Virus record (IMG/VR): IMGVR_UViG_3300033076_001232
Location: 142,435-206,434 of that record
Length of the DNA stretch: 64,000 nucleotides
Direction: 5' to 3' (one strand)
Origin: a virus
Lineage: Duplodnaviria; Heunggongvirae; Uroviricota; Caudoviricetes
In this document: in pieces, positions 1 to 59,926 of the stretch
Position numbering within the stretch: position 1 is the stretch's first letter
How the letters are laid out: every line of letters begins with the position of its first letter
Notes under the pieces: generated by a model
Seen by the model: only the letters and a program-made list of their open reading frames with translations
What the model was told of the DNA's origin: nothing
Database searches by the model: none
Translations under genes and position numbers: made by a program

Positions 1-1
1 T

Positions 2-1111
2 AGATGGGATGATCTTCTGGTTTTATTTGGAACTCCATTGCAGGAGGATGCTTTCGGTTTAATTAAAACCGCACTAGAATCAGAAAATGGATTATGTGCA
101 AAGTGGATGCCTAGAAAAGGTCCAATTGCGAACGAGTTAAGAAAGTTTATGAACATGACTCCGAAGGAGTATAGAAAATTGCTTGTTTCTCTAACTAATG
201 TGGTTGAGCAAAACATGTGTTTAAATAAATGGGAAGACATTAATTATTCAAATGTTCCATCGGTCGCTGCTGCAAGATACCAAAATGCTTTCTATAGAAA
301 GGATCAGAAAAGATACGCTGAGTACATTCGTCTTTTAAGCATGCCTAGTGAAGAAAGACCAAATGAAATAAAAATCAATGCTCAAGCGGTTTATCCCTAT
401 GATGTTATTAAATCTCTAAACAGAGGTAATAAGGACGTTGCAACCGAACAATGGAAGGCTCTTCCTAATTATATGGAGGGAAATACTGAAATGATTCTAC
501 CTGTAGTTGATGTTTCAGGTTCTATGATGTCCTCAGTATCTGGTGGATCTTCCTTAACTTGTATGGACGTATCAGTGTCTTTAGGACTTTATATCTCGGA
601 AAGAAATAACGGGCCTTTCCAGGATCACTTTATAACATTTAGTGAGAGCCCTAGTCTACAGAAATTATCGGGTAATCTTTATGATAGATATTGTCAATTA
701 TCCGAATCCGATTGGGGAATGTCAACTAATCTAGAATCTGTATTCAATTTGATTCTAAAGCAAGCTACTAAACACAACATCTCTGAATCTGAAATGCCAT
801 CTAAAATATTGATTCTTTCCGATATGGAGTTCGATGAATGTATAATGGACGGTGAAAGTACATCTGCGATGGAGATGATCAGAAAGAAGTACTCTGATGC
901 TGGATATAAGCTTCCTTCGATTATATTCTGGAATATCCAGAGCAGAAGAGGTGGAAATAATATACCTGTTAGATTTGATGAGATGGGAACTGCTTTAGTT
1001 TCTGGATTTTCTCCTTCGATACTTAAATCAATATTAGCTGGTTCTGAAATAAGCCCGATGGAGATAATGAACCAGACGATAAATTCGGAAAGGTATCAAA
1101 AAGTATCATAA
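2..1111 (+). CDS. vWA-domain protein, 5'-truncated at window edge (MIDAS-like VVDVSGSM; possibly Ro60/TROVE-like or DUF2828-like)
   Basis: Reading frame open from nt 2 to stop at 1109-1111; no in-window start (track begins at TTG 38); DxSGS MIDAS-type motif. Confidence 0.6.
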   Translation, partial: RWDDLLVLFGTPLQEDAFGLIKTALESENGLCAKWMPRKGPIANELRKFMNMTPKEYRKLLVSLTNVVEQNMCLNKWEDINYSNVPSVAAARYQNAFYRKDQKRYAEYIRLLSMPSEERPNEIKINAQAVYPYDVIKSLNRGNKDVATEQWKALPNYMEGNTEMILPVVDVSGSMMSSVSGGSSLTCMDVSVSLGLYISERNNGPFQDHFITFSESPSLQKLSGNLYDRYCQLSESDWGMSTNLESVFNLILKQATKHNISESEMPSKILILSDMEFDECIMDGESTSAMEMIRKKYSDAGYKLPSIIFWNIQSRRGGNNIPVRFDEMGTALVSGFSPSILKSILAGSEISPMEIMNQTINSERYQKVS

Positions 1112-12421: not shown

Positions 12422-12726
12422 GAAAGGGTGATTTTTGTTTACTTAATTCTGAAGGGTGTCTTTTATCCTGCACTAGGCATAATGAATACATTAAGGTAAA
12501 TTCAGAAGAGGAAAAATGTAATCACGTTTTTGTTATTTATGATACTGAAGATAGTATTGTCGATATTCTAGAATCAGATAAAATGAAAGAGTTCATACAC
12601 GGGGATCTTGAAATCCACGGTGTTTCCAGAAGCTACCGATATTCAGAATTCCCTGGGAGTATGAAACCCGATCTTAAAACTCTGGATGAATTTATAGGCA
12701 TAGATACTGCTGGAAAAATATACTAG
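12418..12726 (+). CDS. Hypothetical protein
   Basis: ATGA overlap with upstream gene. Confidence 0.45.
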   Translation: MRKGDFCLLNSEGCLLSCTRHNEYIKVNSEEEKCNHVFVIYDTEDSIVDILESDKMKEFIHGDLEIHGVSRSYRYSEFPGSMKPDLKTLDEFIGIDTAGKIY

Positions 12727-12764
12727 ATGTTTTTTGGTATATAGATCAAAAAAGTAGTTTTTAA

Positions 12765-13214
12765 ATGAAGTCCGGTTATTATTTAAGTGCAGATCTAATT
12801 TCTAAGAAGAAATTTACGACCGATGATTTAGAGAGGATAACATCAGAAATGGAAATGAATGAGGATTTCTTTGATCTCTGTTCAGTTCTTTCTGGTTTTA
12901 TATCTATGAATTTTAGCAGTCATGTCGAAATCTATGCAGAGGATATAAAATTTGATTCAGACAAGATAACAGAGGTTGAACAATTTATAGAGATTCTAGA
13001 TTCTTTGATCTCAGGAGGATGGGGAAATGATTCTAAGATAGAGTGGACCTCAGATTATCCAGAGATGACATATCTTTGGTTTAAAAATTCAGACGTTTGG
13101 GAATCTGTAACCAAGGATCACGATAGAGGCATATGGAGAGAAGAGGAGGAGTGGGACAAGGATGATTCAGATTATGACTACCCGGATTATACAGATCCGG
13201 AGGATAATTGGTAA
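12765..13214 (+). CDS. Hypothetical protein with acidic D/Y/E-rich tail
   Basis: ORF track. Confidence 0.45.
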   Translation: MKSGYYLSADLISKKKFTTDDLERITSEMEMNEDFFDLCSVLSGFISMNFSSHVEIYAEDIKFDSDKITEVEQFIEILDSLISGGWGNDSKIEWTSDYPEMTYLWFKNSDVWESVTKDHDRGIWREEEEWDKDDSDYDYPDYTDPEDNW

Positions 13215-13350
13215 TTTTCTGGAACATTTCTATAAAAAGCATATATAAAAAGTAAGGAAGAGCCTTTCAAGCTTATTACTGTCTCGGGTCAAACAGGCCT
13301 TAGAGTTGTTCAAAGAGCATCGAAGAGATATTAAAAAAAGAAAAGGTAAT

Positions 13351-14217
13351 ATGAAAAACAACAAAATCGGTGAAACCAATTCACCAAAGCCACAAGCATG
13401 GATCGCCGTATCCAACAATCGACAAAAACTATACGGCACAAACAATGATCTAGTTTATCTAGATGACGACCAGGAGTTTCAAATTGAACTCTACAATCCA
13501 ACTTCCATTAAATATCTTGCTAAGATCTATGTCAATGGGGAATTAATGTCTTCTGCTGGTTTGGTTCTAAAACCAGGTCAAAGATATTTCCTTGACAGAC
13601 ACATCGATGTCAAGAAAAAATTGGTCTTCTCCACTTATGAGGTTGAAGATACTGAAGAGGTAGCGGAAGCAATCAAAAACAACGGATCGGTGAAGGTTGA
13701 GTTTTATGGGGAGTGCAAAAATTCAAATTGGCTAACTGCCAGTCCCGGAACTAGCACGCTTACAGTTTATCCAACCTGGACTACCAACCACAATCTTACT
13801 GGAAATGGAACTATTACTTTTGGAGGTTCCACCGTTAATACTCTATTCACGAGTACCTCAGGTGTTATTTCAGGATCAATTTCCGGAGGTGTGGATATTT
13901 CAGCCAGTAGGGATTACAGCTCAAGTTTCGTATACGACACCTACTCTAGTGAATACTCTAGTGAAATCAAAATGCAAAATGCTGGTTCTCTAGAAACTGG
14001 ACGTGTTGAAACGGGTAAGGATTCAAATCAGAGTTTCGATCAAGACTATGGGACTTACTCATGGTTTAGCTCATTCAATTCTGAATACAAAATCCTCCCA
14101 AGATCAACTAAACCGGTTGAGGTTAAGGAGATCAGAGAGTACTGCACAGAGTGCGGAACTAGAATAAAGAAAAAAGGCTGGAAATTCTGCCCATCATGTG
14201 GGGAGAAATTAAGCTAA
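13351..14217 (+). CDS. S/T-rich protein with C-terminal zinc-ribbon (CTECG...CPSCG)
   Basis: Start moved to ATG 13351 (MKNNKIG); CxxC-x11-CxxC at C-terminus. Confidence 0.5.
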   Translation: MKNNKIGETNSPKPQAWIAVSNNRQKLYGTNNDLVYLDDDQEFQIELYNPTSIKYLAKIYVNGELMSSAGLVLKPGQRYFLDRHIDVKKKLVFSTYEVEDTEEVAEAIKNNGSVKVEFYGECKNSNWLTASPGTSTLTVYPTWTTNHNLTGNGTITFGGSTVNTLFTSTSGVISGSISGGVDISASRDYSSSFVYDTYSSEYSSEIKMQNAGSLETGRVETGKDSNQSFDQDYGTYSWFSSFNSEYKILPRSTKPVEVKEIREYCTECGTRIKKKGWKFCPSCGEKLS

Positions 14218-14295
14218 ATTAAAAGTTTGGGGCTCTTCCTTTTTTTTAGAGAACTATTTTCTAAATCACCCATATAACTTTAAAATCTTTTATAA

Positions 14296-16233
14296 GTGAA
14301 GGTATTTTTCATAGTCCCGCATTTGTCTACTGGAGGAATGCCGGAATATCTAAAGAATAAGATAGAGAAAATAAAGGACTCCTGTGAAATATGGGTTTTT
14401 GAAAAATCACACGAGAGGACTTATAACACAATCAGGAAAAGAATAGAATCTTTAATAGGACCAGAACGTATAATTACATTGGGTGCTAAGAAAAAGATAC
14501 TATTGGAATCCATAAGATCGATTGGTCCGGATGTTATACATTTCGAAGAACCCTGCGAGCATTTTCTTTCTGACGATATTCTTGAAGAGATATTTTATAG
14601 TGAAAGAAAATATCGTATCCTAGAAACTTTCCATGATTCGTCAATGCAGCCAGAGGAAAAAAAATTCTTGCCTGATAAATTTATAGTGGTTAGTCCATGG
14701 CAGGTTAAGTTGTTGCAGAAGTTAAAAATCCCTATGGAAGTTATTGAACATCAATTAGAGAAAAGGGAATTTAGAAATTCCGATGCAGCCAAGAATAAGC
14801 TAGGGTTAGATACCGGGCATAAACACGTGGTTCAAATTGGAATATTCACGCCAAGAAAAAACCAATCAGAGACAATTAATATAGCCAGATTAACCCCACA
14901 GATACAGTATCACTTCATTGGTACTTTGGCGGATAATTTCAAATGGTACTGGGAACCTTTGCTGAGAGATCTTCCCCCCAACTGTAAAATTTGGGGTGAG
15001 CGTGATGATGTTGATCTTTTTTATGAGGCTGCAGATCTTATCATATTTCCTTCCATAGAAAGATTCAACGATAAGGAAACAAGCCCTCTCGTTTTAAAGG
15101 AAGCTATCTCTTGGAAGACACCTCTTTTGATGAAGAACACCGATGTTTATTCAGACATGTATCAAGAATCAGATACGGTTCATTTCATGGGGGGTTCAAT
15201 AAATTATAATTCTAGAAAAATTTTACAAATATTAGGAGAAATGGAAACAGGAGGACAAAAATTCTCGGCTAGATTTGAAGCCGATGAAAATAAATTAATA
15301 GTGGGTCTTATGGAAAATGAGATAGGCGATGTTACCGTATCTATTAAGGATAGGGATTCTAACACCTGCATATTTTCATTTTCTCTAGATGCACAGTATG
15401 CGGGATCCGAATGGTGGTGTATCCCGATACCTAAGCCATACTTTGATTTTATGGGTGATAGAAACTTTAGTGGTTTCTTAGTCGAGTTTTACAAGTCATT
15501 GAACGAGGATCCAATCGAATCTTTGATTGTAGACCTAGATAAAAAACCCATCATGAAAAAAATGATAAACTCCGGTGGTCCTATTAACTTCGATCCTATT
15601 TTCGTAAATTACACACAGTTCTTTGTTGATGGAATTTATAACCAATTCTTTGCAGGCACCCGAGTGACAACTGCCATCGACATAGGAGCTAATGTTGGTC
15701 TTTTTACCGAATGGGTACTTGATAGATTCGGAAGCGACACGAAAGTAATTTCGGTTGAGCCAAATAGCAAAGCATGCGAATCATTCAGTTACATGCACTC
15801 AGGAAAAGAGAATGTTATTTTAGAAAAGCTTGCAGTCACTTCCACTGATAACGATGTGATCAAACTTTTAGTAAATCCGGAGAATACCCTAATATCTAGT
15901 GTAGAAGGTACTGGAGATGGCTACTCAGATTCAGAGGAGATCGGTACCATATCTCTCCTTAGTTTATTGGAAAAGCATGGTCTCTCTGAGGTTGATCTTC
16001 TTAAGGTTGACGTGGAGGGAGCAGAATATGATATATTTAGCGTTGTTTCACCGGAGGATCTCAGAAGGTTTAAGCACATGCTAATTGAATTTCATAACAA
16101 TAGAGGCAGAGCATCCGATTTGATATCAAAGATAATCTCTGCTGGTTTTGACGTGGATCTTAGAGACGACGATACAAGGTATCAAGTGGATCAGAACAAC
16201 GATAGAGGAACCATATTTGCAACAAGAAAATGA
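14296..16233 (+). CDS. Bifunctional glycosyltransferase (GT-B fold) / FkbM-family methyltransferase
   Basis: GTG start; GT-B C-terminal half motifs (EAADLIIFPS..E..PLVLKEA); C-terminal TAIDIGANVGLFTEWVL FkbM-like SAM motif. Confidence 0.6.
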   Translation: MKVFFIVPHLSTGGMPEYLKNKIEKIKDSCEIWVFEKSHERTYNTIRKRIESLIGPERIITLGAKKKILLESIRSIGPDVIHFEEPCEHFLSDDILEEIFYSERKYRILETFHDSSMQPEEKKFLPDKFIVVSPWQVKLLQKLKIPMEVIEHQLEKREFRNSDAAKNKLGLDTGHKHVVQIGIFTPRKNQSETINIARLTPQIQYHFIGTLADNFKWYWEPLLRDLPPNCKIWGERDDVDLFYEAADLIIFPSIERFNDKETSPLVLKEAISWKTPLLMKNTDVYSDMYQESDTVHFMGGSINYNSRKILQILGEMETGGQKFSARFEADENKLIVGLMENEIGDVTVSIKDRDSNTCIFSFSLDAQYAGSEWWCIPIPKPYFDFMGDRNFSGFLVEFYKSLNEDPIESLIVDLDKKPIMKKMINSGGPINFDPIFVNYTQFFVDGIYNQFFAGTRVTTAIDIGANVGLFTEWVLDRFGSDTKVISVEPNSKACESFSYMHSGKENVILEKLAVTSTDNDVIKLLVNPENTLISSVEGTGDGYSDSEEIGTISLLSLLEKHGLSEVDLLKVDVEGAEYDIFSVVSPEDLRRFKHMLIEFHNNRGRASDLISKIISAGFDVDLRDDDTRYQVDQNNDRGTIFATRK

Positions 16234-18542
16234 GAATAGCACAGATTACCCCTGGTGTAATTCCGATCCCACCAAATGGATGGGGTGCAGTTGAAAAAAT
16301 AATATGGGAATACACTAAAGTACTTAGATCATTAGGACATCATGTAGAGATATTATATTCAAGTGAGGTCAATCCGGACGAATGGGACATAGTACATGTT
16401 CATATGGCAAATCTTGCCCTGGATCTAAAGTCAAGAGGAATACCTTACATCTTCTCACATCATGATCACCATGCCTATCACTTTGGTAAAGAATCTCACA
16501 CTTACAAAGAAAACTTGGAAGCTATCCAGGGATCAATTGTGAGCTTCGTACATGCTAAATATTTAGTTGATTATTTTGGAGGCGGGGATAAATTAAGGTA
16601 CTTGGGTCACGGGGTTAATATCTGGGACTATGAGTTTAATGATAAATCCAGAAGCATTAAAGAGGGAAACATCTCATTGCTAATGTTAGCTAATAACGGC
16701 CTGGGCGGTGATAAGATGTACGATAGAAAGGGATTCAAATACGGAATAGAATCCGCAAGAAGATTGAATCTACCAATAACGATAATATGTCCATCCGATA
16801 ATTCCGATTTGATAGAATCAGTAGATCCCTACGAGAAGCTAACTCTCAAATATAATCTGGGCTATTTGGACACCCTGGAGGAAATAAGAAATCACCACAT
16901 TTTTTTGAATCCTTCGATGTTAGAGGCTGGACACCCAAACCTCACTGTTACTGAGATGTTGTCTCTGGGAATTCCAGTGATCGGTACGTGTGAGTCGGAA
17001 ATCCCAGGATTGGTGAGATTGCCACTAGCATCGGATCTTAGTATAGATTTAGATAATCTATGTGAATCTATAGAGAAAGCAATTAGAACTTATCCGCAGT
17101 TAGTTTTAGAATGTAAGAGAATCAGGGAATCACTTTCATGGGAGGTGGTTGTATCTAAGATGCTAATGGAGTACTCGTCATTCGCTAAGATCGATCAAAA
17201 GGAGCTTATTTTAAGCTCGTATAAGACTCCAATTAGAAAAGACATATTAACAGATGTTCGGGGGTTCGATTGCTCGTTTAATGGCTCTATTTACGCTTAC
17301 AAATCAGCCAATACACCTTCGATAACTTCAGTTTCATTTAAAGATAGAGGAACTAACCAGATAATATATAAATCCAAGTTTTCTAAATCGTCTAAATCCT
17401 GGATTATGTATGGCGATTCACCTAATAGATTCATAGACTGGGAGGTTGTTTTTAAGGTTGGAGACATTGAGGTATTTAAAAAATCGATGGATCTAAGGGA
17501 CAATCATGTTCTTGTTATTGGCGAGATTGGATCTGATAAATCCGAAATGTTATCGGATTTTGAGAAAACTACCGGATGTATACTATCATTAAGAGATTCT
17601 GAAATTAGTGGATTTTTCAAATCCGATGGATCCGATGATCTATACTATAGAAAGCTAAACCCAGAACAAATCTTAGATTTTTTCTCCCCCAAGGATAAGA
17701 TCACTAGCCGAACATTAATTACTCTGGAAACTGGATCTCTGGGTGACAATATAGCTTTCATTCCCTATGCTAATGAATATGGTAAGAAGATAGGTGAAAA
17801 AGTCGATGTTATCATGCCACACAAGGATCTATTTACCGATGTATATGAATGGGTAAACTTTGTAGATTCAGATGGATTGCATCCTTATACTAACTATGTA
17901 GCCATTGATTACATTTTCGAAAAACCCCTACAAGAGGGTGCGGCATACCAGCTAGGATTAGATTATCAAGAGATAAGACCGGAAATAAAACAGAGACAAT
18001 CCTTAGATATACCTTCGGGCAAATATGTGTGTTTCTCCATGCACAGCACAGCACAGGCTAAGCATTGGAATTATGACAAAGGATGGTCAAAACTATGTAA
18101 TGAATTGAAGTTAATGGGTATTACTCCAGTTTGCATAGATCGATACGAATCATTTGGTACAGAGGACAATTGGAATCCTATCCCTAAAAATTGTGTCAAT
18201 ATGACTGGGGGTGACCTAACAAGAATGATAGAAATAATTAGTGGGTGTGAATACTTTATAGGACTTTCTAGCGGTTTATCTTGGTTGGCACATGCACTAG
18301 GAAAGAGAGTGGTGATGATATCGGGGGTCACTTCTCCAGAAAATGAATTCACAATTGATTGCCTAAGAATACACGATTCCAGCGTTTGTAATTCGTGTTT
18401 TAATAAGTGTAAGGATTACGAGTTCGATCCCGGAGATTGGATGTGGTGTCCTGAATTTAGGGGAACCTCTAGACAGTTCGAATGTACTAAAGGTATATCT
18501 GCACATAGAATAATATCAGAAATAAAGAAAATCGGGTGGTAA
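16230..18542 (+). CDS. Multidomain glycosyltransferase: N-terminal GT4-like, C-terminal GT9 (heptosyltransferase-like)
   Basis: GWGAVEKI..HVH N-terminal GT4 features; C-terminal ETGSLGDNIAF and GGDLTRMIEIISGCEYFIGLSSGLSWLAHALG GT9 motifs. Confidence 0.6.
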   Translation: MRIAQITPGVIPIPPNGWGAVEKIIWEYTKVLRSLGHHVEILYSSEVNPDEWDIVHVHMANLALDLKSRGIPYIFSHHDHHAYHFGKESHTYKENLEAIQGSIVSFVHAKYLVDYFGGGDKLRYLGHGVNIWDYEFNDKSRSIKEGNISLLMLANNGLGGDKMYDRKGFKYGIESARRLNLPITIICPSDNSDLIESVDPYEKLTLKYNLGYLDTLEEIRNHHIFLNPSMLEAGHPNLTVTEMLSLGIPVIGTCESEIPGLVRLPLASDLSIDLDNLCESIEKAIRTYPQLVLECKRIRESLSWEVVVSKMLMEYSSFAKIDQKELILSSYKTPIRKDILTDVRGFDCSFNGSIYAYKSANTPSITSVSFKDRGTNQIIYKSKFSKSSKSWIMYGDSPNRFIDWEVVFKVGDIEVFKKSMDLRDNHVLVIGEIGSDKSEMLSDFEKTTGCILSLRDSEISGFFKSDGSDDLYYRKLNPEQILDFFSPKDKITSRTLITLETGSLGDNIAFIPYANEYGKKIGEKVDVIMPHKDLFTDVYEWVNFVDSDGLHPYTNYVAIDYIFEKPLQEGAAYQLGLDYQEIRPEIKQRQSLDIPSGKYVCFSMHSTAQAKHWNYDKGWSKLCNELKLMGITPVCIDRYESFGTEDNWNPIPKNCVNMTGGDLTRMIEIISGCEYFIGLSSGLSWLAHALGKRVVMISGVTSPENEFTIDCLRIHDSSVCNSCFNKCKDYEFDPGDWMWCPEFRGTSRQFECTKGISAHRIISEIKKIGW

Positions 18543-18560
18543 TTGGGGATATATAAAACC

Positions 18561-19157
18561 ATGAGAGGATTTTTATTTTTAGTCACCCTCGTATCTCCCT
18601 TATTCATATTTTCGCAAACTAAATTAAGGGACTCTGTTTTTGTTAAAACCGAGATATATGAGGTTATTTATAGCGAAATTTTGGAACAACCCAGAATGGT
18701 TAAATATACGGTTTTATGTCCGAATGGTAAAGCTTCCAGAAGTGGTATGGATTTTTACGTCAATGACTCCATAAAAACATCAGATAATCTGGATTATGTT
18801 AGTAATGTCTATGACAAAGGGCATTTAGCTCCAGCCGCTGATTTTAATTGCACTAGAGAGATGCTTCTTAAGACTTTTAGTTATCTAAATTGCTCTTTAC
18901 AAAATCAATATCTAAATAGAGGCGTATGGAGAATGTTAGAGGAGCATGAGAGAACTCTTGCATCTAAGGAAAATGTTGTTGTTACCATAGAGATCGTTTT
19001 TAGTAAAGCATCAAAAAAACTTCCCAGTGGAGCTACCGTGCCTGACGGGTATTACAAAACTATTTATTTAGAGAAATCTAAAAAGACTATAAAATATTAT
19101 TTTCCTAACGTTAAACCGGATAAGGCTACATTCTCTAGTTATGAAATAAAGGCATAA
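18561..19157 (+). CDS. Secreted DNA/RNA non-specific endonuclease (NUC / Serratia-nuclease family)
   Basis: Signal peptide MRGFLFLVTLVSPLFIFSQ; DKGHLAPAADF catalytic motif. Confidence 0.65.
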   Translation: MRGFLFLVTLVSPLFIFSQTKLRDSVFVKTEIYEVIYSEILEQPRMVKYTVLCPNGKASRSGMDFYVNDSIKTSDNLDYVSNVYDKGHLAPAADFNCTREMLLKTFSYLNCSLQNQYLNRGVWRMLEEHERTLASKENVVVTIEIVFSKASKKLPSGATVPDGYYKTIYLEKSKKTIKYYFPNVKPDKATFSSYEIKA

Positions 19158-19206
19158 TCCAGGAACAATATTTAAAAATGGATATATAACAAAAAAAAGA
19201 AATAAA

Positions 19207-19767
19207 ATGTCAAGAATAGTTTCATTTGATCAATTCAAAAGTAAGGCTGACAAAATGTCTGAAAAGAATTACAACACTAAAGAATCTCACAACGAAGGGC
19301 ATGAGCATGGCCACGAAGGGAGAGACCACCAACACTACATGTTTTTCCAAAACCTGCTTTCGATTAAACATCATATAGAAGAAATCCTTAATATGGATCC
19401 AAACCAAATTGATGAGTTATTGAAGAATGGTCACGATTGGGCTTGCGATCATATTGCAACCTCTAAGGATGACATTCAGGAAGTAGCTGAATGGGCAAGA
19501 AACGAGATGGAAATGGCAGGAGGTGAATCTCCAGAGCACACCGAAGAAGAGCCAGAAAACGTTATCGTTGATATCGAAGGAGACAACGATGAAGTTGAAG
19601 TAGAAGACGACGAAGAAGGTGAGGAAGACGAGGAAAGCGAAGAAGGTGAGGAAGAGGAAGAAGATAGCGAAGACGAAGAGGAAGAAGAGGAAGAAGAGGA
19701 ACAATATAACGAGGATGATGAGTACAACCTTGGTGAAGATTTCTCTGATGAAAACTACGAAGAATAA
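19207..19767 (+). CDS. His-rich then highly acidic (poly-E/D) protein
   Basis: HNEGHEHGHEGRDHQH then >60-aa E/D-rich low-complexity tail. Confidence 0.5.
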   Translation: MSRIVSFDQFKSKADKMSEKNYNTKESHNEGHEHGHEGRDHQHYMFFQNLLSIKHHIEEILNMDPNQIDELLKNGHDWACDHIATSKDDIQEVAEWARNEMEMAGGESPEHTEEEPENVIVDIEGDNDEVEVEDDEEGEEDEESEEGEEEEEDSEDEEEEEEEEEQYNEDDEYNLGEDFSDENYEE

Positions 19768-19790
19768 TACCTAAAACTAGATAAACTAAA

Positions 19791-19820
19791 AGCTGTCAAT
19801 CTGATTGACAGCTTTTTTTG
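19791..19820 (+). terminator. Rho-independent terminator
   Basis: 10-bp stem agctgtcaat/attgacagct, loop ctg, T7. Confidence 0.8.
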
Positions 19821-19854
19821 TGAAACAAAGTCCAGTAAAGAGTATAGGAGTTAT

Positions 19855-20502
19855 ATGGAAATAAAATTTGCAGATAGCTTCTCAGAAAGTCTAAAAGTAC
19901 TTAGAAGACATAACACGTGGTGGTATAAAACCTATGATTTTTTCCGAAGAGGAATACCCGGGTTTATAAAGAACATAATTAAATATCGTGAAGCATTATG
20001 GAATGATCGATGGTGGGATCACCACTTCTCCCTTAAATTTCTAGAGATTTCTCTTAGGGACATGGCTGACAAGACCGAAAAACACGGACTTGAAGTTGAT
20101 TCCAGCAGACTAAAAAAAGTTTCAGCAATGAGACGAGCAGCTGATCTAATAAGAAACTACAATGAGGATCTATATTTAGAGATGGCTGAAGCAGAGCTTG
20201 GAGAGATTAACTACAAAAAGCCACTGTTTGAAAAGGATGAGAATAATCCAGATTATTATGTAATGGCGGATAACGACACACCTGAAGAGAAGGAGCACAA
20301 AAGGAAAGTCTATGATAGAACCAGAGAGTTAGAGGAATCCGAATGGAATGAACTCTGGACGATCATAAGGGGTCAGGACATGGATGAGTTTAGAACTTTC
20401 TATAAGAAAGTCAAATCCGGAGAAGCAGATGATTTCGAAAAGGAGAATGGTGAATGGGAAAACTGGTTTGATGGATCAGGCATGAGAGGATGGTGGGATT
20501 AA
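19855..20502 (+). CDS. Hypothetical protein (W-rich)
   Basis: ORF track. Confidence 0.45.
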   Translation: MEIKFADSFSESLKVLRRHNTWWYKTYDFFRRGIPGFIKNIIKYREALWNDRWWDHHFSLKFLEISLRDMADKTEKHGLEVDSSRLKKVSAMRRAADLIRNYNEDLYLEMAEAELGEINYKKPLFEKDENNPDYYVMADNDTPEEKEHKRKVYDRTRELEESEWNELWTIIRGQDMDEFRTFYKKVKSGEADDFEKENGEWENWFDGSGMRGWWD

Positions 20503-21425: not shown

Positions 21426-22391
21426 ATGGCAGAAATACTAAATCTGGTAAATCCGAAAGATAGCTTATCCTTTAAATATGAGATAAGCAGGTTCCCTGAC
21501 GGCCAGCAATCATTAAGACTGATTGAGGATGGTTACAACACATTCAATTCACTAAAGAATGCGGCGATCAAAATAAAGTCAAGACTAAACAATTTCCAGG
21601 ATTTGGAAATTATCATTTGCGCAACACAAGCTCTTAGGGAGGTTGGAGTGAATGATATCAGTCTTTACATTCCTTATTGTGTTGGTGCTAGAAGCGACCG
21701 AAAATTTTCAGAGGGTGGAATCAATTATGTTAAGACGGTGATTGCACCTATTATCAATTCACAGGGCTACTCGAGTGTCACAATACTTGATCCACATTCT
21801 GATGTGCTTGAGGCTTGCATTAACAATTTCAAAAAGATAAACAATTTCAATTTAGTCAATTTTTCTTTGAAAGAAATCCTACTTGAAGATTGGAGAAAAA
21901 CTTCGGACGATATTGGTTTCGAAGGGTGGTACAAATACGACTGGCTAAAGAACCCGGACATTGTCCTAGTTTCACCCGATGCAGGTGCTTATAAGAAAAT
22001 TTTTGATGTTGCAGAAAATTTCAGAATTAAGAGCATAGCAACAGCGGTCAAAGTTCGAGATTTGGAAACTGGAAAGATCCTGAGAACGGAGGTTCCAAAT
22101 TTACCCATTAGCACAACAGGAAAAGAATTTAGGTATGTAATTATCGATGACATTTGTGATGGCGGTAGAACATTCATTGAATTGGCAAAAGCGATCAAAG
22201 CTAGTCGCCCAACTGCTGAGATCTATTTAGTGGTCACTCATGGAATCTTCAGTGCTGGGTATGCTGAATTAGGAAAATATTTTAATGGAATCTATTGTAC
22301 AAACTCGGTAAAGGACATCGTACACGATCCAGAAGACACCGACCTCGAAAGAGAAATGAAGGAAAAAGTAAAACAATTAAACGTATTCTAA
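21426..22391 (+). CDS. Ribose-phosphate pyrophosphokinase-family protein (Prs-like; possibly ADPR-pyrophosphate synthase type)
   Basis: FPDGQ, IPYCVGARSDRK (cf. IPYFGYARQDRR), ILDPHS, VSPDAGA, VIIDDICDGGRTF PRPP-binding loop. Confidence 0.7.
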   Translation: MAEILNLVNPKDSLSFKYEISRFPDGQQSLRLIEDGYNTFNSLKNAAIKIKSRLNNFQDLEIIICATQALREVGVNDISLYIPYCVGARSDRKFSEGGINYVKTVIAPIINSQGYSSVTILDPHSDVLEACINNFKKINNFNLVNFSLKEILLEDWRKTSDDIGFEGWYKYDWLKNPDIVLVSPDAGAYKKIFDVAENFRIKSIATAVKVRDLETGKILRTEVPNLPISTTGKEFRYVIIDDICDGGRTFIELAKAIKASRPTAEIYLVVTHGIFSAGYAELGKYFNGIYCTNSVKDIVHDPEDTDLEREMKEKVKQLNVF

Positions 22392-29448: not shown

Positions 29449-31020
29449 ATGAAAGGAATAAACCCAGCCCTTCTAACCGACGGTTATAAAACAGGGCACC
29501 ATCAGCAATACCCGGAGGGAACAACTCTAGTGTATTCTAACTTTACCCCAAGAAGTAACAAGTATGCACCTAAGGGATGCGATCATGTTGTTTCTTTTGG
29601 TCAGCAACTTATCATGAAGCAGATTCACGAGAGCTTCCAAAAAGATTTCTTCGATCAGCCTAAAGATGAGGTGTGCTCGGAAATTAAGAGAGAGCTTTCT
29701 CTTTATCTAGGAGTCGATTACGATGTTAGTCACTTCGAAGCCCTTCACGATCTTGGATATTTACCTATTAAGGTTAAAGCAATCAAAGAGGGAACTTTAG
29801 TGCCAATCAAGGTTCCTGTCTTGACTATCTATAATACGGATCCCAACTTTTACTGGGTAACCAACTATTTGGAAACACTAATCTCAAATCTTCTTTGGAA
29901 GCCAATGACTTCCGCAACAATTGCTTACCAATACAAGAGAGTTCTTACCGATTGGGCTCTTAAAACCGACAAGGAAAACAAAACATTTGTTCAGTGGCAA
30001 GGTCACGATTTCTCTATGAGAGGTATGGATTCAGTGGATGCTGTAATTTCTTCCGGTCTTGGACACCTAACATCTTTTACTGGAACAGATTCCCTTCCTG
30101 CAATTTACGGAGCTCGTAAGTATTACGGAGCGGAAGGATTTGTCGCAGCGTCAGTGCCAGCAACAGAACACTCGGTAATGTGTGCTGGCGGGAAAGAGGA
30201 TGAGATTGAGACATTCCGAAGACTGATTAAGACTTACCCTGCTGGTATCTTGTCAGTAGTATCTGATACTTGGGATTTGTGGAAAGTGTGTACGGAGCAT
30301 GTGGTTACTTTGAAAGAAGAGATTTTGGCTCGTGATGGTAAGTTGGTTATTCGTCCTGATAGTGGTGACCCGGTTGATATCCTTTGCGGTACAGAAGATT
30401 ATACAAAATCTAAATTACCTTATGATGAGGTTAAAGATGTAGAAGTTATGCACCCTAGCCAAAAAGGTGTAATTGAACTTCTTTGGGATGTATTTGGAGG
30501 AACTGTTAACGAACAAGGTTACAAAGTACTTGATCCACATATCGGAGCAATCTATGGCGATAGCATTACTATCGATCGTGCTGAGCAAATCTGCAGCAGA
30601 TTAGCTTCAAAGGGATTTGCATCAACAAACGTAGTGCTTGGGGTAGGATCTTTCACTTACCAGTACAACACCCGCGATACATTTGGTTTTGCAATGAAGG
30701 CAACTTATGTTGAGGTTAAGGTTCCTAAATATGGTGATTTTGCGGACCAAGGGTTGAATACCGAAATTGAAGGTAGAGAAATCTTCAAAGATCCAATCAC
30801 CGATGATGGAACGAAGAAATCTGCAACTGGCTTACTAAGCGTAGTTAGCCGTCCAGGTGAAGGTTTAACCCTAGTTGATAAGTGCGACTGGAAACATGAA
30901 AATGTCGGAGCATTGGAAACAATCTACCACGACGGAAAATCTAGCTCCGAGATCACTCTTTCTGAAATTAGAAACAATCTTGAATTTTCTTTGATTAAAG
31001 AGAGAGAAATTATTTTTTAA
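29449..31020 (+). CDS. Nicotinamide phosphoribosyltransferase-family protein (NAMPT/NadV-like; possibly Namat-type)
   Basis: VPATEHSVM, SFTGTDS, IRPDSGDPV motifs conserved with NAMPT. Confidence 0.7.
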   Translation: MKGINPALLTDGYKTGHHQQYPEGTTLVYSNFTPRSNKYAPKGCDHVVSFGQQLIMKQIHESFQKDFFDQPKDEVCSEIKRELSLYLGVDYDVSHFEALHDLGYLPIKVKAIKEGTLVPIKVPVLTIYNTDPNFYWVTNYLETLISNLLWKPMTSATIAYQYKRVLTDWALKTDKENKTFVQWQGHDFSMRGMDSVDAVISSGLGHLTSFTGTDSLPAIYGARKYYGAEGFVAASVPATEHSVMCAGGKEDEIETFRRLIKTYPAGILSVVSDTWDLWKVCTEHVVTLKEEILARDGKLVIRPDSGDPVDILCGTEDYTKSKLPYDEVKDVEVMHPSQKGVIELLWDVFGGTVNEQGYKVLDPHIGAIYGDSITIDRAEQICSRLASKGFASTNVVLGVGSFTYQYNTRDTFGFAMKATYVEVKVPKYGDFADQGLNTEIEGREIFKDPITDDGTKKSATGLLSVVSRPGEGLTLVDKCDWKHENVGALETIYHDGKSSSEITLSEIRNNLEFSLIKEREIIF

Positions 31021-37383: not shown

Positions 37384-37932
37384 ATGGAAACAAAAATTGA
37401 TCCTAGAGAGATTGAAAAAATCGAAAAATTAACAGGGGGTAAAATCGGAACTCATACCTTTGGTCCAAACCAAGAACACACTTTGGAGAATTCCTTTCTA
37501 TCTCAGGATGGAACATATATTGGAGACTTCGAAAGAGCTCAATGGTACGTTGAACAAAAATTGATGGTCGACGAGGAATACCCACATGGAGTTGCTGCCG
37601 TTATTAAGGACGAAACCTACGGAACAGAAATTCCGGAAATAGAAGGCATGTATGGTTACACTCACAGAGGGGGTCAAATGTTTAAAATCGGTGATCGATT
37701 ATTTGACGAAAGTTACAAACCACAGAAGGAGGACTATCCCGAGGATGAATGGTCGAAGTATGAGGAGAGCTTTAAAAAATCTTACGATGAGGCAGACGAC
37801 CTAAATAAAAAATGGATGGATAACGACGGAATCTCTTATGTTATCCCATTTAAAATGAGAGGGAGAAAGAATATCGAAACTATGAGGGAGGCTTTCGAAG
37901 CAGCTAGAAACATGTCAAAGTATTTAAGTTAA
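37384..37932 (+). CDS. Hypothetical protein
   Basis: ORF track. Confidence 0.45.
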   Translation: METKIDPREIEKIEKLTGGKIGTHTFGPNQEHTLENSFLSQDGTYIGDFERAQWYVEQKLMVDEEYPHGVAAVIKDETYGTEIPEIEGMYGYTHRGGQMFKIGDRLFDESYKPQKEDYPEDEWSKYEESFKKSYDEADDLNKKWMDNDGISYVIPFKMRGRKNIETMREAFEAARNMSKYLS

Positions 37933-38108: not shown

Positions 38109-39044
38109 ATGAAAAAAAATTTATTATCGACCTCATACAATATGAAGTCTGACCTTGTTTCTATCACCATACCTTATTTAGATTTAGATCTGACTGATCT
38201 AACCCCGGAGATTTTGAATGAGCCTGAAATTTTCTCACAACCTAGAAATTTATCGGCTTATAGTAAATTTGTTCAGCTAGAGAGGTACCAGATTTCAACC
38301 AAATTTTCGAATGACCTAGTTTCGGATCTCCAGCATTTCCACGGGGTCGATGCGGGATCGATGATTAATAATGTCATCTCAGAGGAATTCTTAGTCAAGA
38401 AAGAATCTTTGCTTTATTCTCTCTATCTTGAAAATGCAAAGATAAAATTAGAACCTCGTGAATCTAAATTTGGAGGATGGATTAGGAAAAAACTATTTTC
38501 AGGAAGGGATTTCCCACATTATATTAATATTGAAACCCAAACGGGATCTTCTAAGGTGGTTGATTTGATTTATGAAGCATCCTTCAGGATCAATGACTCC
38601 TGTGTGTTTGGTCCTGGTAATTTTGTTGTCTGCTCACCTCGAATATGTTCTCTAATTAGTAACGATAGAAGATTTGTTTCGGACAATGATCACTCTTTCT
38701 CTCCAATAAATACTGAACTGCTGGGACATTTAAATTCGAATAACAGAATAGATGTGTACGTCAATCCAAAATTAACTTGGGAAGACACTACAATAATAGT
38801 TGGCAGATCCAATTGGGAATCATTAGAAAATGGAACCTATATTGTTGAGAAGAATGATTCACCAACGATCGAGACAATGGAATCGTTACATCAAGGTTTA
38901 GAGAAAGTCACAAGGGGTGTTCATTATATGACAGTGGGTAACCTTTCAAGAGAATCTACATATTCGAGATTTGTAAGGATAGACATAGCGACTGGAAAAA
39001 AACCTTTCTGGAGGAAACTATTGTACTTGTTTGGAGTTGAATAA
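38109..39044 (+). CDS. Hypothetical protein
   Basis: ORF track. Confidence 0.45.
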   Translation: MKKNLLSTSYNMKSDLVSITIPYLDLDLTDLTPEILNEPEIFSQPRNLSAYSKFVQLERYQISTKFSNDLVSDLQHFHGVDAGSMINNVISEEFLVKKESLLYSLYLENAKIKLEPRESKFGGWIRKKLFSGRDFPHYINIETQTGSSKVVDLIYEASFRINDSCVFGPGNFVVCSPRICSLISNDRRFVSDNDHSFSPINTELLGHLNSNNRIDVYVNPKLTWEDTTIIVGRSNWESLENGTYIVEKNDSPTIETMESLHQGLEKVTRGVHYMTVGNLSRESTYSRFVRIDIATGKKPFWRKLLYLFGVE

Positions 39045-43653: not shown

Positions 43654-44016
43654 ATGAGAAAAATTAAGATTCTTTACGATTTTCTTAGATTGTGGATTAT
43701 GTGGGGAGATAGGAAGGAAGCATGGCAAGACGCAAATTCTATAAACGATCCTAATTTCCAGAAAGAACTGGAAGAGATATCCAATAAGTTAGATCAGGTT
43801 CTCTTAGAAAAGAATCCAAATTTTAAAGAAGTCTGTCTTGAGATATCTCAAAGACTTTCCAATTTACCTTACGATAATGGAGACATATCAGACATCGGTA
43901 ACGAGATAGGTATTGTTCTGGGTAAACATATCCAGGATGGGTCTTTCGGATGGGAAAGAGGAGATTTAAATTCTGGACTAAATCATGGTATATCAATAGC
44001 TAATGGAACACACTAA
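43654..44016 (+). CDS. Hypothetical protein
   Basis: ORF track. Confidence 0.4.
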   Translation: MRKIKILYDFLRLWIMWGDRKEAWQDANSINDPNFQKELEEISNKLDQVLLEKNPNFKEVCLEISQRLSNLPYDNGDISDIGNEIGIVLGKHIQDGSFGWERGDLNSGLNHGISIANGTH

Positions 44017-45163
44017 GAATATGAATAACATAGACAAGCAGTACTTAGATCTACTCCAGGATATATTGGACAATGGAGTAGAAAAAAGAGATAGAACCGG
44101 AACGGGGACTATCTCAGTTTTTGGTAGACAGATAAGACATAAGATGTCGGAAGGATTTCCTTTGCTTACGACGAAGAAGATGTACTGGAAAGGAATCGTA
44201 ACCGAGCTACTTTGGTTTTTAAGAGGTGATACCAATATTAAATTCTTGGTCGATAACAACTGCCACATCTGGGACGGCGACGCATACAAGAACTATCAGA
44301 GCAAACAAAAGAAACCTAAGGTCGGAGACTGGGAAAATTACATAGATTGCTACTGTGGACATACCGATACATGTTCTTGCGGAATTATGTCAAAGACAGA
44401 ATTTATAGAAAAAATTAAATCAAGCAAAGTGTTCTCAGATAAATGGGGAGAGCTCGGTCCTATTTATGGAAAGCAGTGGAGATCATTCGGTCCATCTGAC
44501 GAATACTATAATGGAACAGAGTGGGTTTATATAAGCCCAATAGATCAGATAGCTAAAGCTATAGAAATGATAAAGGAGGATCCAGATTCTAGAAGAATTA
44601 TGGTTACCGCATGGAATCCCTCAGATTTGCCTAAATCTGTACTCCCACCTTGCCATTATGGATTTCAATTTTATACAAGAGAGTTGAGCGATGAAGAAAG
44701 AGTAAAGTTATATGAACAAAAAACAAACACAGATACTTCATTCTTTCCAGTACTTACAGAAACCTTAGCTTTCCATAATATACCAACCAGAGCAATCTCT
44801 TTAATGTATAATGCCAGAAGTCAAGATGTTCCTCTAGGAACACCGTTTAATATAGCTTCATATGCTCTTCTTCTTTCGATAATTGCAGAAATAACTAACA
44901 CTGTACCGGAAGAAGTTATAGCTAACATGGGGGATTGTCACATCTATCTAAATCAGATAGATGGCATAAAGGAACAGATAAGCAGGTCTCCAAAAGAGTT
45001 GCCTCAATTGCAGATCAACAAGGAACCATTTGACAATTATCTTTTCGCCTCACATTCAGAAAAAACGTCAATCAATCATTTAATTAACGATTTGAAGCCG
45101 GAACACTTTAATATTTCGGGATATGATCCACATCCAACGATAAAGATTCCATTGAGTAATTAA
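44003..45163 (+). CDS. thyA: Thymidylate synthase (ThyA) with two internal insertions
   Basis: DRTGTGT, LLWFLRGDTN, DLGPIYGKQWR, DPDSRRIMVTAWN, PPCHYGFQFY, PFNIASYALL, GDCHIYLNQ, YDPHP all in ThyA order; ~45-aa Cys-rich insert and ~30-aa insert. Confidence 0.85.
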   Translation: MEHTKNMNNIDKQYLDLLQDILDNGVEKRDRTGTGTISVFGRQIRHKMSEGFPLLTTKKMYWKGIVTELLWFLRGDTNIKFLVDNNCHIWDGDAYKNYQSKQKKPKVGDWENYIDCYCGHTDTCSCGIMSKTEFIEKIKSSKVFSDKWGELGPIYGKQWRSFGPSDEYYNGTEWVYISPIDQIAKAIEMIKEDPDSRRIMVTAWNPSDLPKSVLPPCHYGFQFYTRELSDEERVKLYEQKTNTDTSFFPVLTETLAFHNIPTRAISLMYNARSQDVPLGTPFNIASYALLLSIIAEITNTVPEEVIANMGDCHIYLNQIDGIKEQISRSPKELPQLQINKEPFDNYLFASHSEKTSINHLINDLKPEHFNISGYDPHPTIKIPLSN

Positions 45164-45180: not shown

Positions 45181-45669
45181 ATGCCAGTAATGATAAAGGA
45201 TTCACGTTTCTATAATAACGGATCATCAAATAGAGCCTTTGGAACTTCCGGAATGGCTGGAATACCAGGAATTCCCGGGGTTTCTGGATTTGTCTCAATC
45301 ACGGAAGGTCTCCCAGTTTCATATGAAGAAATTCCCAGAACTGCCAAATTAGAAAGCAGATTTGTAGATTTGTACGACGATTACGATTTCTCACTATATT
45401 CCGCCGAATTAAAGAATCAATCCAGTATAATTGATGTGGTAAGCAGGGTGTCTTCTGAAGTAAGCGATTCAAATCCAGTAGGGAGCAAAGGAAATGTCGG
45501 AAAGGTAAAAAATGAAGTTGTCGGTATTAACACACAGATCTCTAAGAAATCTAAAAATCTTAAAGGAAGTAGTATTAAGAAAGAAAAAAATCAAATTTTA
45601 AAAACTGTTCTGCAGAACTTTTTCCCAGTAAGCGCATTTACTTCTATTTACGAAAAAATTAGAAGATGA
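45181..45669 (+). CDS. Hypothetical protein
   Basis: ORF track. Confidence 0.45.
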   Translation: MPVMIKDSRFYNNGSSNRAFGTSGMAGIPGIPGVSGFVSITEGLPVSYEEIPRTAKLESRFVDLYDDYDFSLYSAELKNQSSIIDVVSRVSSEVSDSNPVGSKGNVGKVKNEVVGINTQISKKSKNLKGSSIKKEKNQILKTVLQNFFPVSAFTSIYEKIRR

Positions 45670-46091
45670 AGACCGGTATAATAGCAGGTAATTTTGATGT
45701 AATCCATCCAGGCTACATTGAGATGTTTAATGAGTGTAAGGAGCATTGTGAATCCCTAGTAGTTTTATTGCATGAAGATCCTAGTCTGGAACGTCCGGAA
45801 AAAATGAAGCCAATTCTATCTTTGGATGATCGTATTAAGATTTTGAATTCTCTAAAACAAGTGGATGGTGTTATGACATATAAAACGGAGAGAGATCTTT
45901 ATAAGATAATAAGCTCCGGGATAAGATTAGAATTCTTTACTGTCAGGTTTCTTGGAGATGATTATAAGGGGAAATCATTTACCGGCGATGATCTTAATAT
46001 CCCGATCCACTATCTGAATAGGGATCATGGCTGGTCTACAACAAAATATAAAAAATTGATAGCGGAATCGATAACTGCTAAATATAATTAA
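45666..46091 (+). CDS. Cytidylyltransferase-like nucleotidyltransferase (HxGH-superfamily; NMNAT- or RfaE-domain-II-like)
   Basis: GNFDVIHPGY motif near N-terminus; ~140 aa. Confidence 0.45.
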   Translation: MKTGIIAGNFDVIHPGYIEMFNECKEHCESLVVLLHEDPSLERPEKMKPILSLDDRIKILNSLKQVDGVMTYKTERDLYKIISSGIRLEFFTVRFLGDDYKGKSFTGDDLNIPIHYLNRDHGWSTTKYKKLIAESITAKYN

Positions 46092-49445: not shown

Positions 49446-49447
49446 TT

Positions 49448-50301: not shown

Positions 50302-50302
50302 G

Positions 50303-54106: not shown

Positions 54107-54155
54107 AATTTATTTATTTTTTTTCCTGCTAGGGTTTTTCAAACCCCCGTTTTAT

Positions 54156-55060: not shown

Positions 55061-55065
55061 GTCTA

Positions 55066-58427: not shown

Positions 58428-58428
58428 T

Positions 58429-59151: not shown

Positions 59152-59152
59152 C

Positions 59153-59551: not shown

Positions 59552-59571
59552 TTTATTTTAATTTATTTTGT

Positions 59572-59916: not shown

Positions 59917-59926
59917 AATTATTAAT

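Follow-up and report, generated by a model that had tools for sequence, protein, structure and literature searches.

What does a phage modify with its own glycosyltransferases (GTs), and which of the genes around them belong to the same system? This question is raised by four consecutive genes, here called A to D, in a 64,000-nucleotide stretch of a tailed phage genome (positions 142,435 to 206,434 of the IMG/VR record IMGVR_UViG_3300033076_001232), which we refer to as the window. A encodes a Ser/Thr-rich protein, B and C large multidomain GTs and D a nuclease. As judged from comparative sequence analysis, B and C constitute a conserved two-gene, four-domain module, and A and D are lineage-specific neighbours. 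We hold with moderate confidence that B and C would act as a phage-borne machine for the direct O-glycosylation of proteins in the cytoplasm.

The C-terminal part of the C protein is predicted to be a protein O-heptosyltransferase module of the TibC/AAH type (bacterial autotransporter heptosyltransferase, BAHT), closely related to enzymes that link heptose to Ser residues of bacterial adhesins, rather than a generic GT9 domain for lipopolysaccharide (LPS) synthesis. It matches Glyco_transf_9 of Pfam (PF01075 family, E = 2.7e-8), and residues 495-767 align with TibC in a phmmer search (4rap_A, E = 2.3e-38). Among the NCBIfam models, C scores 217.1 bits (cutoff 200, E = 3.5e-64, model positions 82-374 of 374) on TIGR04414 (hepto_Aah_TibC), an equivalog named 'autotransporter strand-loop-strand O-heptosyltransferase', and merely 15-19 bits on the models for LPS heptosyltransferases I and II. 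An AlphaFold2 (AF2) model of C obtained with 63 homologues (predicted local distance difference test score, pLDDT, 89.6; predicted template modelling score, pTM, 0.81) consists of a GT-B domain (residues 1-330), a beta-domain (346-419), a small alpha/beta unit and the BAHT catalytic domain (495-770). The top PDB matches of this model are TibC chains (Foldseek, E = 1.8e-26), followed by GT4 enzymes that match the N-terminal domain. The 'GT9 heptosyltransferase-like' domain of the original prediction therefore holds as to family, with the refinement that it is specifically of the TibC/AAH type, which points to a protein acceptor rather than to LPS or DNA.

The functional residues of TibC have been defined (PMC4358343), and we mapped them onto C by aligning the TibC segment with 72 non-identical phage domains; 63 homologues were aligned as well. 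The catalytic base D110 of TibC corresponds to D506 of C and is Asp in 71 of the 72 phage sequences, the other having a gap. The donor contacts T226 and K230 are represented by T607 (Thr or Ser in all 72) and K611 (Lys in 71), and the heptose contact W305 by W685, a Trp in every phage sequence. The iron-finger residues Cys 339, 342, 358 and 370 correspond to C720, C723, C740 and C752, all of which are present in 72 of 72 sequences. D506, K611, W685 and the four Cys are also invariant, or nearly so, in the alignment of 63 homologues. At the position of TibC P300, which is Ser in AAH, C has S680, and the phage sequences mostly have the AAH-like Ser. The catalytic machinery and the iron finger are thus predicted to be kept in the phage BAHT modules, and the four retained Cys make the iron finger of C a predicted metal site. 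Because the iron finger of TibC participates in the recognition of the protein substrate (PMC4358343), its strict conservation argues for a protein acceptor.

To define the unit to which C belongs, we called ORFs (open reading frames) in 87 loci and compared them with the window proteins; the following counts refer to the 80 loci from IMG/VR. A B-type GT is present in 70 of these loci; in 68 its gene precedes C in the same orientation, and in 26 it is immediately adjacent to C. Nine of the ten loci without it have <5.4 kb of upstream sequence. The FkbM domain was detected in 56 loci, 46 times as part of the GT protein and 9 times apart from it, and the GT4 and BAHT halves of C are fused in 75 and split in 4. 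A and D are present in 13 and 8 loci, respectively, and the loci that contain them form a collinear clade sharing RNase HII and three flanking hypothetical genes, with L016 as a rearranged relative. D is missing even in the closest relatives of the window (L002, L003 and L008; 74-77% identity), where the next gene directly follows C. In the 735-kb phage LR756501, B-like and C-like genes are adjacent and the A homologue lies ~320 kb away, and the Lak megaphages contain A, with no C homologue detected. Since the linkage of B and C is kept in distant relatives and that of A and D is not, the conserved unit is B plus C. The original prediction had treated the four genes as one glycosylation block, which has to be narrowed to these two. 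We also rejected the four genes as one conserved cassette, because the 87-locus census shows no linkage outside collinear relatives except that of B with C.

Homologues of C number at least 965 in the metagenomic protein collection. Among the 120 listed, nearly all are full-length fusions (~770 amino acids, 40-87% identity) on contigs of up to 594 kb, and some have already been named 'autotransporter strand-loop-strand O-heptosyltransferase' by the Joint Genome Institute (JGI) pipeline. IMG/VR contains 553 relatives of C. By contrast, two hits were found in 185,579 species genomes, both on phage-like contigs of metagenome-assembled genomes, which were binned with Bacteroides and Winogradskyella. 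The sole match to the domain among isolated phages is in Microcystis phage Mel-JY01. This 1226-amino acid GT1-TibC_1st-GT9 fusion is annotated only as 'methyltransferase FkbM' and adjoins a 'structural protein', and a cytidylyltransferase-like gene is located 3 kb away. The view that a GT9 domain is unusual in a phage is therefore correct for isolates, but it does not apply once uncultured phages are counted. Our literature search found no paper describing the BAHT/TibC family in phages.

The remaining regions of C and the B protein are consistent with further sugar transfer and methylation. The fold of C domain 1 matches those of MshA, PimA, BshA and tll1591 (Foldseek, E = 6e-12 to 1e-9), and the Pfam GT4 families give weak matches below the cutoff (E = 0.02-0.03). 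The motifs E232-AGHPNL-x3-E242, H78-D79-H80-H81 and G17-W-G19 are invariant in the 63 homologues, the invariant E232-x9-E242 taking the place of the usual E-x7-E spacing, and residues 1-58 match the phrog_33732 glycosyltransferase. The Foldseek alignment of C with TibC covers 445-460 columns, which exceeds the catalytic domain alone (TM-score 0.64-0.70, normalised to the ~381-residue TibC chain). The Pfam domain TibC_1st was not detected in C and was detected in the Mel-JY01 homologue. On the basis of the predicted fold, the middle region of C probably corresponds to the N-terminal beta-barrel of TibC.

In B, the match to Glycos_transf_1 (PF00534) has an E value of 5e-10 (39.6 bits; cutoff 26.4), and the nearest GT models in NCBIfam represent retaining GT4 enzymes, such as diacylglycerol alpha-glucosyltransferase and BshA. 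An E-x7-E motif can be read from the translation (ETSPLVLKE). The FkbM-family assignment is supported by PF05050 (E = 3.8e-14, 53.6 bits; cutoff 22.7), TIGR01444 (fkbM_fam, 78.3 bits; cutoff 37.7) and the Gly-rich S-adenosylmethionine (SAM)-binding motif IDIGANVG from residue ~460. B is devoid of transmembrane segments (maximum KD19, i.e. 19-residue Kyte-Doolittle, hydrophobicity, 1.12).

All four ORFs claimed for this locus are present on the plus strand (Table 1), and the ORFs of the window read cleanly with code 11. Their domain matches are statistically solid by sequence criteria and lie beyond what chance would give. Failure of the domain searches had been named beforehand as a possible refutation; in the event, Pfam, NCBIfam and fold searches supported GT-B plus FkbM in B and GT4 plus a GT9-like domain in C. 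The proposed translational coupling of B and C is borne out by an ATGA overlap read at 16230-16233. Two starts were revised: the alignment of 39 homologues of A, all beginning with MKN, places its start at the ATG at 13351, and eight homologues support the ATG at 18561 for D. The former left edge of the block (13254) does not coincide with any gene or ORF start and falls inside a 17-nucleotide inverted repeat. A promoter and terminator scan of 12700-19900 yielded counts that do not differ from those of shuffled sequence and is thus uninformative on the operon structure.

Table 1. Coordinates and predicted features of the four genes and of a nucleotidyltransferase gene downstream in the window
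Feature	Position	Residues	Strand	Basis
Gene A	listed 13306-14217 (TTG start); homologue-supported 13351..14217 (ATG)	288 aa	+	
A, predicted Ig-like beta-sandwich, disordered linker, ETGR...YxILPRS segment and C-terminal CxxC...CxxC zinc ribbon	13351..14217	sandwich ~11-122; linker ~124-230	+	39-homologue alignment, AF2
Gene B	14296..16233 (GTG start)	645 aa	+	
B, N-terminal GT4-like GT-B glycosyltransferase	14782-15231	163-312 (Pfam stretch)	+	PF00534
B, middle region, uncharacterised	between GT and FkbM stretches	~130 aa	+	
B, C-terminal FkbM-family SAM methyltransferase	15670-16140	459-615	+	PF05050, TIGR01444
Gene C	16230..18542	770 aa	+	
C domain 1, GT4-like GT-B glycosyltransferase	16230..17219	1-330	+	fold matches, invariant motifs
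C middle region, predicted beta-sandwich/barrel (346-419) then small alpha/beta unit	17265..17699	346-490	+	AF2 secondary structure
C domain 3, predicted TibC/AAH-type (BAHT) protein O-heptosyltransferase catalytic domain with iron-finger motif	17703..18542	492-770	+	phmmer, TIGR04414, Foldseek
Gene D	listed 18543-19157; homologue-supported 18561..19157 (ATG)	198 aa	+	
D, compact DNA/RNA non-specific (Serratia/EndoG-type beta-beta-alpha-Me) endonuclease with signal-like N-terminus	18561..19157		+	PF01223
Small nucleotidyltransferase, RfaE-domain-II/TagD type	45666..46091	141 aa	+	PF01467, 1.8e-9

The gene content of the distant relatives (32-50% identity to C) differs from that of the window. 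In these phages, the GT genes cluster among genes for a T4-like large terminase, portal, tail sheath and S74-chaperone fibres, and 3-8 genes of a cluster encode enzymes of glycan tailoring, among them GT2, a second GT9, a hexapeptide acetyltransferase, a CmcI-type methyltransferase and a sulfotransferase. This content implies that some phages may carry sulfated, acetylated and methylated glycans. A protein with ≥50% Ser/Thr over 50 amino acids is encoded in 22 of the 87 loci, and many of these proteins are collagen-like (GTS/GSS)n fibres of giant size, the longest with 2949 amino acids (L019, 12513-21362, minus strand). In L019, L036, L056 and L088, the S/T-rich fibre gene follows C with few or no small genes between, and in L001 a 695-amino acid fibre (14022-16109) is encoded upstream of the B-like gene. 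As side observations, GTS/GSS-triplet proteins are also encoded at L025, L050 and L066, some members of this whole group of fibres have an S74 intramolecular chaperone domain, and the sulfotransferase, the second stand-alone GT9 and PglD-like acetyltransferases of the distant clusters were located at L088 3546-4364, L019 2185-3126 and L036 7691-8272.

In the mechanism that we propose, the BAHT module of C would move the first sugar from a nucleotide-sugar donor to the Ser (or Thr) hydroxyls of a Ser/Thr-rich acceptor. This sugar would most likely be a heptose, which is taken as the default because W685 and S680 match heptose contacts of TibC/AAH. The GT4-like domains at the N-termini of C and B would then add more sugars, and the FkbM domain of B would cap the chain by O-methylation of a sugar, probably that at the terminus. 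The presence of a second GT and the methyltransferase alongside C implies an oligosaccharide rather than single heptoses. Because the four domains are soluble and lie without accompanying genes for a lipid carrier, flippase or polymerase, the acceptor itself would be the site of glycan assembly; the same features, together with the BAHT identity, suggest that O-glycosylation takes place in the cytoplasm. Candidate acceptors are the disordered S/T linker of A, S/T-rich virion fibres encoded beyond the window and the product of 56742-58427 (minus strand). The resulting glycan coat on a phage protein may serve, for example, stability, shielding or adhesion. What the analysis establishes is the domain identities, the conserved catalytic residues, the linkage of B and C and their phage-specific distribution; the protein nature of the acceptor, heptose as the sugar, the sequence of steps and the biological role are inferred.

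Several observations weigh against this reading. R286 of TibC, which contacts adenine N1 and underlies ADP-sugar specificity, is replaced by M666 in C, and the position is Arg in 24 of the 72 phage homologues; hence, the donor may be other than ADP-heptose. C carries an Arg one position earlier (R665), a position that is not conserved. The thumb tip of TibC (F265/V266), which makes the dodecamer contact, corresponds to the non-hydrophobic D646/N647. The length of the beta-hairpin thumb is retained, and the tip in the family is G/N/D followed by Y/N/K/H. The F265D and V266D mutants of TibC are inactive dimers (PMC4358343), and with its polar tip the quaternary mechanism of TibC is probably inapplicable to C. 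Both the donor nucleotide and the ring-shaped assembly may thus differ from those of TibC. Family scans found no autotransporter domain in the window or in the related loci, and no autotransporter or beta-helix adhesin adjoins the genes, unlike in bacterial BAHT loci. GmhA, HldE and GmhB were not found in the window (Pfam search of concatenated ORFs) or among the extra genes of the distant clusters. With the adenine Arg lost, no heptose-pathway genes found and the sole activating candidate far below the cutoffs, heptose as the first sugar is a default guess. In this lineage, B and C sit among genes of nucleotide and NAD metabolism, not among structural genes, and the acceptor in the window phage is at candidate level only. 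The S/T content of the A linker is similar in LR756500 and LR756508, both of which lack a C homologue. Finally, the association of S/T-rich fibres with GT clusters, which comes without a background rate, is suggestive.

The original prediction had listed virion proteins, host surface glycans and hydroxymethylated DNA bases as possible targets; of these, protein glycosylation is sensible, and DNA modification is unsupported in the window, where ThyA is ordinary. Modification of the host envelope is one alternative. Instead of decorating a phage protein, B and C might modify a host glycoconjugate or host protein (LPS core, capsule, S-layer or cargo of the type IX secretion system, T9SS) in an auxiliary or takeover role, for example by blocking superinfection through a receptor change. 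GT9 is classically an LPS-core family, a huge-phage 'heptosyltransferase I' has been taken as an LPS auxiliary metabolic gene (PMC10747093), and PHROGs classes related GT families as 'moron, auxiliary metabolic gene and host takeover'. The position of the pair among metabolic, early-type genes in this lineage and the many signal-peptide and T9SS-sorted proteins of the phage, which point to remodelling of the host surface, fit the same explanation. However, C is recognised by the protein O-heptosyltransferase model far above the LPS models (217 versus 15-19 bits), the BAHT-specific iron finger and probably the beta-domain are kept, the pair has neither a membrane anchor nor a lipid-carrier GT, flippase or ligase, and the cluster lies within virion structural modules in distant relatives. 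We therefore regard a host-envelope target as unlikely.

A might itself be the dedicated acceptor, if A, B and C formed an enzyme-substrate cassette like the BAHT-autotransporter pairs, in which glycosylation of the linker controls the function of the zinc ribbon. BAHT genes frequently adjoin those of their substrates (PMC4358343), and A, which exceeds all other proteins near the genes in S/T content, has a linker predicted to be disordered, is predicted to be cytoplasmic like the enzymes and is encoded within ~2 kb of B even in the rearranged L016 (39% identity). This dedicated role is doubtful, and quite improbable in our estimation, because no A was found within 8-10 kb of C in the other 67 IMG/VR loci or in L005, L007 and L013, the distance of A from the GT pair in LR756501 and the Lak phages with A and no detected C tell the same story, and the S/T content of the linker does not track C in four readable huge-phage homologues. 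Its composition, compartment and adjacency make A plausible as an acceptor, and the comparative data give it no tie to the GT pair. The explanation to which we give least credence, and which we think very improbable, is that the GTs hypermodify phage DNA through hydroxymethyl-pyrimidines and that the nuclease degrades unmodified host DNA. A phage GT-B and a cytidylyltransferase can place mono- or di-heptose on 5-hydroxymethylcytosine (bioRxiv 10.1101/2023.12.21.572611), a thymidylate synthase homologue and the small nucleotidyltransferase are encoded ~27 kb downstream in the window, and the nuclease gene lies immediately 3' of C. Yet the DNA GTs described there are similar to T4 beta-GT or GT-A enzymes and not to BAHT; the ThyA homologue scores above the cutoff of the thymidylate synthase model and keeps its PFNIASY Asn; and family scans of the window found no TET/5mYOX or C5-methyltransferase. 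In addition, the nuclease has a predicted signal peptide and should leave the cytoplasm, and it is missing in the closest relatives.

Cytoplasmic protein O-glycosylation by B and C can be extended to a broader and more tentative proposal, which we consider possible at somewhat less than an even chance: huge and T4-like phages of Bacteroidota, together with some cyanophages, may possess a virus-specific system in which a re-tooled BAHT hyper-O-glycosylates S/T-rich phage proteins and thereby yields a glycan-coated virion or secreted protein. The re-tooling would consist of fusion to a GT4, loss of the dodecamer contact and pairing with the GT4-FkbM protein. The targets would be the kilobase-long (GTS/GSS)n collagen-like fibres or disordered S/T linkers, and the products methyl-capped, possibly heptose-based oligosaccharides.

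The closest known relatives of the C module are the BAHTs TibC of enterotoxigenic Escherichia coli and AAH of diffusely adhering E. coli (PDB 4RAP/4RB4; ~23-35% identity over the catalytic domain). C resembles them in its score above the curated cutoff, in having TibC as the top structural match, in the catalytic Asp, the residues that contact phosphate (Thr/Lys) and heptose (Trp) and all four Cys of the iron finger, in Ser at residue 680 as in AAH and probably in a beta-domain before the catalytic domain. Unlike these enzymes, C carries its catalytic module behind a GT4-like GT in a 770-amino acid protein, is encoded by phages of Bacteroidota and Cyanobacteria (Mel-JY01) rather than by Proteobacteria, lacks an autotransporter partner, the conserved adenine Arg and probably the dodecamer contact, the thumb tip being polar, and occurs together with a second GT and an FkbM methyltransferase. 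The LPS-core enzymes WaaC and WaaF (GT9) belong to the same CAZy-type fold family (PF01075), but they lack the iron finger and beta-domain and act on lipid A-Kdo; on their models C scores 15-19 bits, versus 217 bits on the BAHT model.

Two viral systems combine GTs with methyltransferases. According to the account in PMC11600133, which cites Freeman 2023, GT and O-methyltransferase operons of Cluster O/F mycobacteriophages glycosylate capsid and tail-tube proteins. As far as described there, these operons resemble B-C in consisting of tandem phage GTs and an O-methyltransferase, and the phage proteins are glycosylated in the cytoplasm; B-C, a module predicted from sequence, differs in its BAHT-type initiating enzyme, host phylum and domain fusions. 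In chlorovirus PBCV-1, the capsid glycan is built and capped with methyl groups by A064R, which has two GT domains and a methyltransferase domain (PMC9614988). A064R is likewise a viral multidomain protein with GT and sugar O-methyltransferase domains, but it belongs to a eukaryotic virus with N-linked glycans and has a GT-A fold, a novel fold and no BAHT domain.

Automated pipelines already attach the O-heptosyltransferase name to some homologues, and by sequence the predicted initiating enzyme of the module is a phage version of the autotransporter O-heptosyltransferases. To our knowledge, protein glycosylation encoded by phages has been shown experimentally in few systems only, mainly mycobacteriophages, and the BAHT enzymes known so far all modify proteobacterial autotransporters and are associated with virulence. 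If our proposal is true, a widespread, phage-specific BAHT fusion, with hundreds of IMG/VR relatives as against almost none in cellular genome bins, extends this enzyme family to viruses and to new substrates. It would provide a handle on the sugar coating of fibres or other proteins by large environmental and gut phages, with bearings on host range, stability, immune recognition and mucus adherence, and would correct a recurrent error of annotation, in which these genes are labelled 'FkbM methyltransferase' or taken for LPS 'heptosyltransferase' auxiliary metabolic genes. Use of the enzymes as tools for Ser-directed protein glycoengineering is also conceivable.

As originally described, A is an S/T-rich zinc-ribbon protein. 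The zinc ribbon was detected by Pfam (PF13240, 8e-6, residues 279-302 of the listed ORF 13306-14217), and the protein reaches 42% S/T over 60 amino acids, the highest value of the neighbourhood. The linker of ~105 amino acids is rich in Ser, Thr, Gly and Asn (21 Ser, 17 Thr and 12 Gly in 106 residues); across the 39 homologues, the ends of the protein are conserved, and the linker varies in sequence and keeps its S/T-rich composition. The pLDDT of the AF2 model is 52 overall, 70-82 in the N-terminal domain and ~30 in the linker. The N-terminal beta-sandwich had no structural match in PDB better than E = 0.02, and PHROGs and NCBIfam gave no match for A. Like B and C, A has no hydrophobic segments. 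Its homologues, at least 1012 and none informatively named, form a large family of hypothetical proteins of huge phages; in Lak and other huge phages, they lie away from GT genes. The A homologues of the Lak loci L091 and L093 do not form one ORF under the standard code, which fits the stop-codon reassignment reported for Lak phages. A is flanked by the inverted repeat mentioned above, AAAAGTAAGGAAGAGCC / GGCTCTTCCTTTTTTTT (88% complementary; 13248-13264 and 14231-14247). The repeat core GGAAGAGCC occurs three times in the window (0.23 expected), with the third copy at 457-465, and the exact 11-mer is absent from the 87 related loci.

The description of D as a Serratia-type nuclease with a DKGHLAPAADF motif was confirmed, the N-terminus being signal-like. 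D matches Endonuclease_NS (PF01223) with E = 6e-24 (85.3 bits; cutoff 23), and its structural matches in PDB are EndoG and Serratia nuclease (E = 2e-7 to 5e-6). The active site is predicted to be intact: the DKGHLAPAADF motif is invariant in eight homologues, as are H88 (DKGH), N110 and N119. The hydrophobic N-terminus (KD19 1.64 at residues 4-22), which ends in F-[GS]-Q, is conserved in the same homologues, and D is thus probably exported. D shares with Serratia nuclease and EndoG the PF01223 domain, the catalytic His of a DRGH-type motif, the conserved Asn metal ligand and secretion (known for Serratia nuclease and predicted for D), but it is shorter (198 amino acids) and phage-encoded. It is present in 8 of the 13 A-containing IMG/VR loci, and this patchy distribution speaks for a function of D that is independent of glycosylation. 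When the region was compared with isolated phages at the DNA level, the nuclease alone matched (~66% identity to an 'endonuclease G' gene of Flavobacterium phage immuto). The gene at 19207-19767, 3' of D, encodes a 186-amino acid protein that is His-rich in its N-terminal part and has a long Glu/Asp run at the C-terminus; the protein is conserved throughout the collinear clade and has no family match.

The window derives from a huge phage, and relatives are located on contigs of 238-348 kb. The host very likely belongs to Bacteroidota, as suggested by a cohesin protein with a T9SS sorting domain, the Flavobacterium-phage-like nuclease and the two hits binned with Bacteroides and Winogradskyella. 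The small nucleotidyltransferase listed in Table 1 has rfaE_dom_II (heptose-1-phosphate adenylyltransferase) as its best NCBIfam model (52.9 bits; cutoff 181.5), nearly tied with glycerol-3-phosphate cytidylyltransferase, and its homologues lie 4-10 kb from C in L006, L007, L009, L012, L015, L016 and L069. That it activates a sugar or polyol phosphate for the pathway is speculative. Together with a nicotinamide phosphoribosyltransferase (29449-31020) and a divergent ribose-phosphate diphosphokinase (21426-22391), it may form an NAD+ salvage set, such as those reported for jumbo phages; if so, its role would be other than sugar activation. The thymidylate synthase gene (44003-45163) scores as ordinary ThyA (NCBIfam, 305.7 bits; cutoff 108). 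Its product of 386 amino acids exceeds the usual length by ~100 amino acids, contains an insertion by which the family match is broken up into 2-3 stretches, and retains the active-site Cys and the PFNIASY Asn, the latter being associated with dUMP specificity.

A gene block on the minus strand (53498-62727) encodes products mostly with signal-like peptides, several of which are small and without a family match. It includes the cohesin protein with the C-terminal T9SS sorting domain (59927-61849), a C-type lectin and LamG protein (55066-56745) and, at its end, a lysin with GH19 and peptidoglycan-binding domains (61897-62727), which suggests that the phage may export proteins via the secretion system of its Bacteroidota host. 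The 561-amino acid signal-peptide protein of this block (56742-58427) contains a Ser/Thr/Gly/Asn/Gln-rich region of ~230 amino acids (57% S/T over 60 amino acids), and its C-terminal ~200 amino acids show alternating hydrophobic strands reminiscent of an outer-membrane beta-barrel, a layout that is loosely autotransporter-like. Neither this protein nor its neighbours had a Pfam match even at E ≤ 1, and the protein also had no NCBIfam match. Elsewhere in the window, a homologue of the Thoeris inhibitor Tad6 (37384-37932, 2e-12) adjoins a gene for a 311-amino acid protein (38109-39044) that weakly matches Gp23, the major capsid protein of T4, and this pair recurs in L002-L004. The region 48576-50848 encodes a Thg1-like tRNA-His guanylyltransferase followed by two proteins with a 'Swiss Army Knife' RNA-repair HAD domain, which possibly constitute a tRNA repair set.

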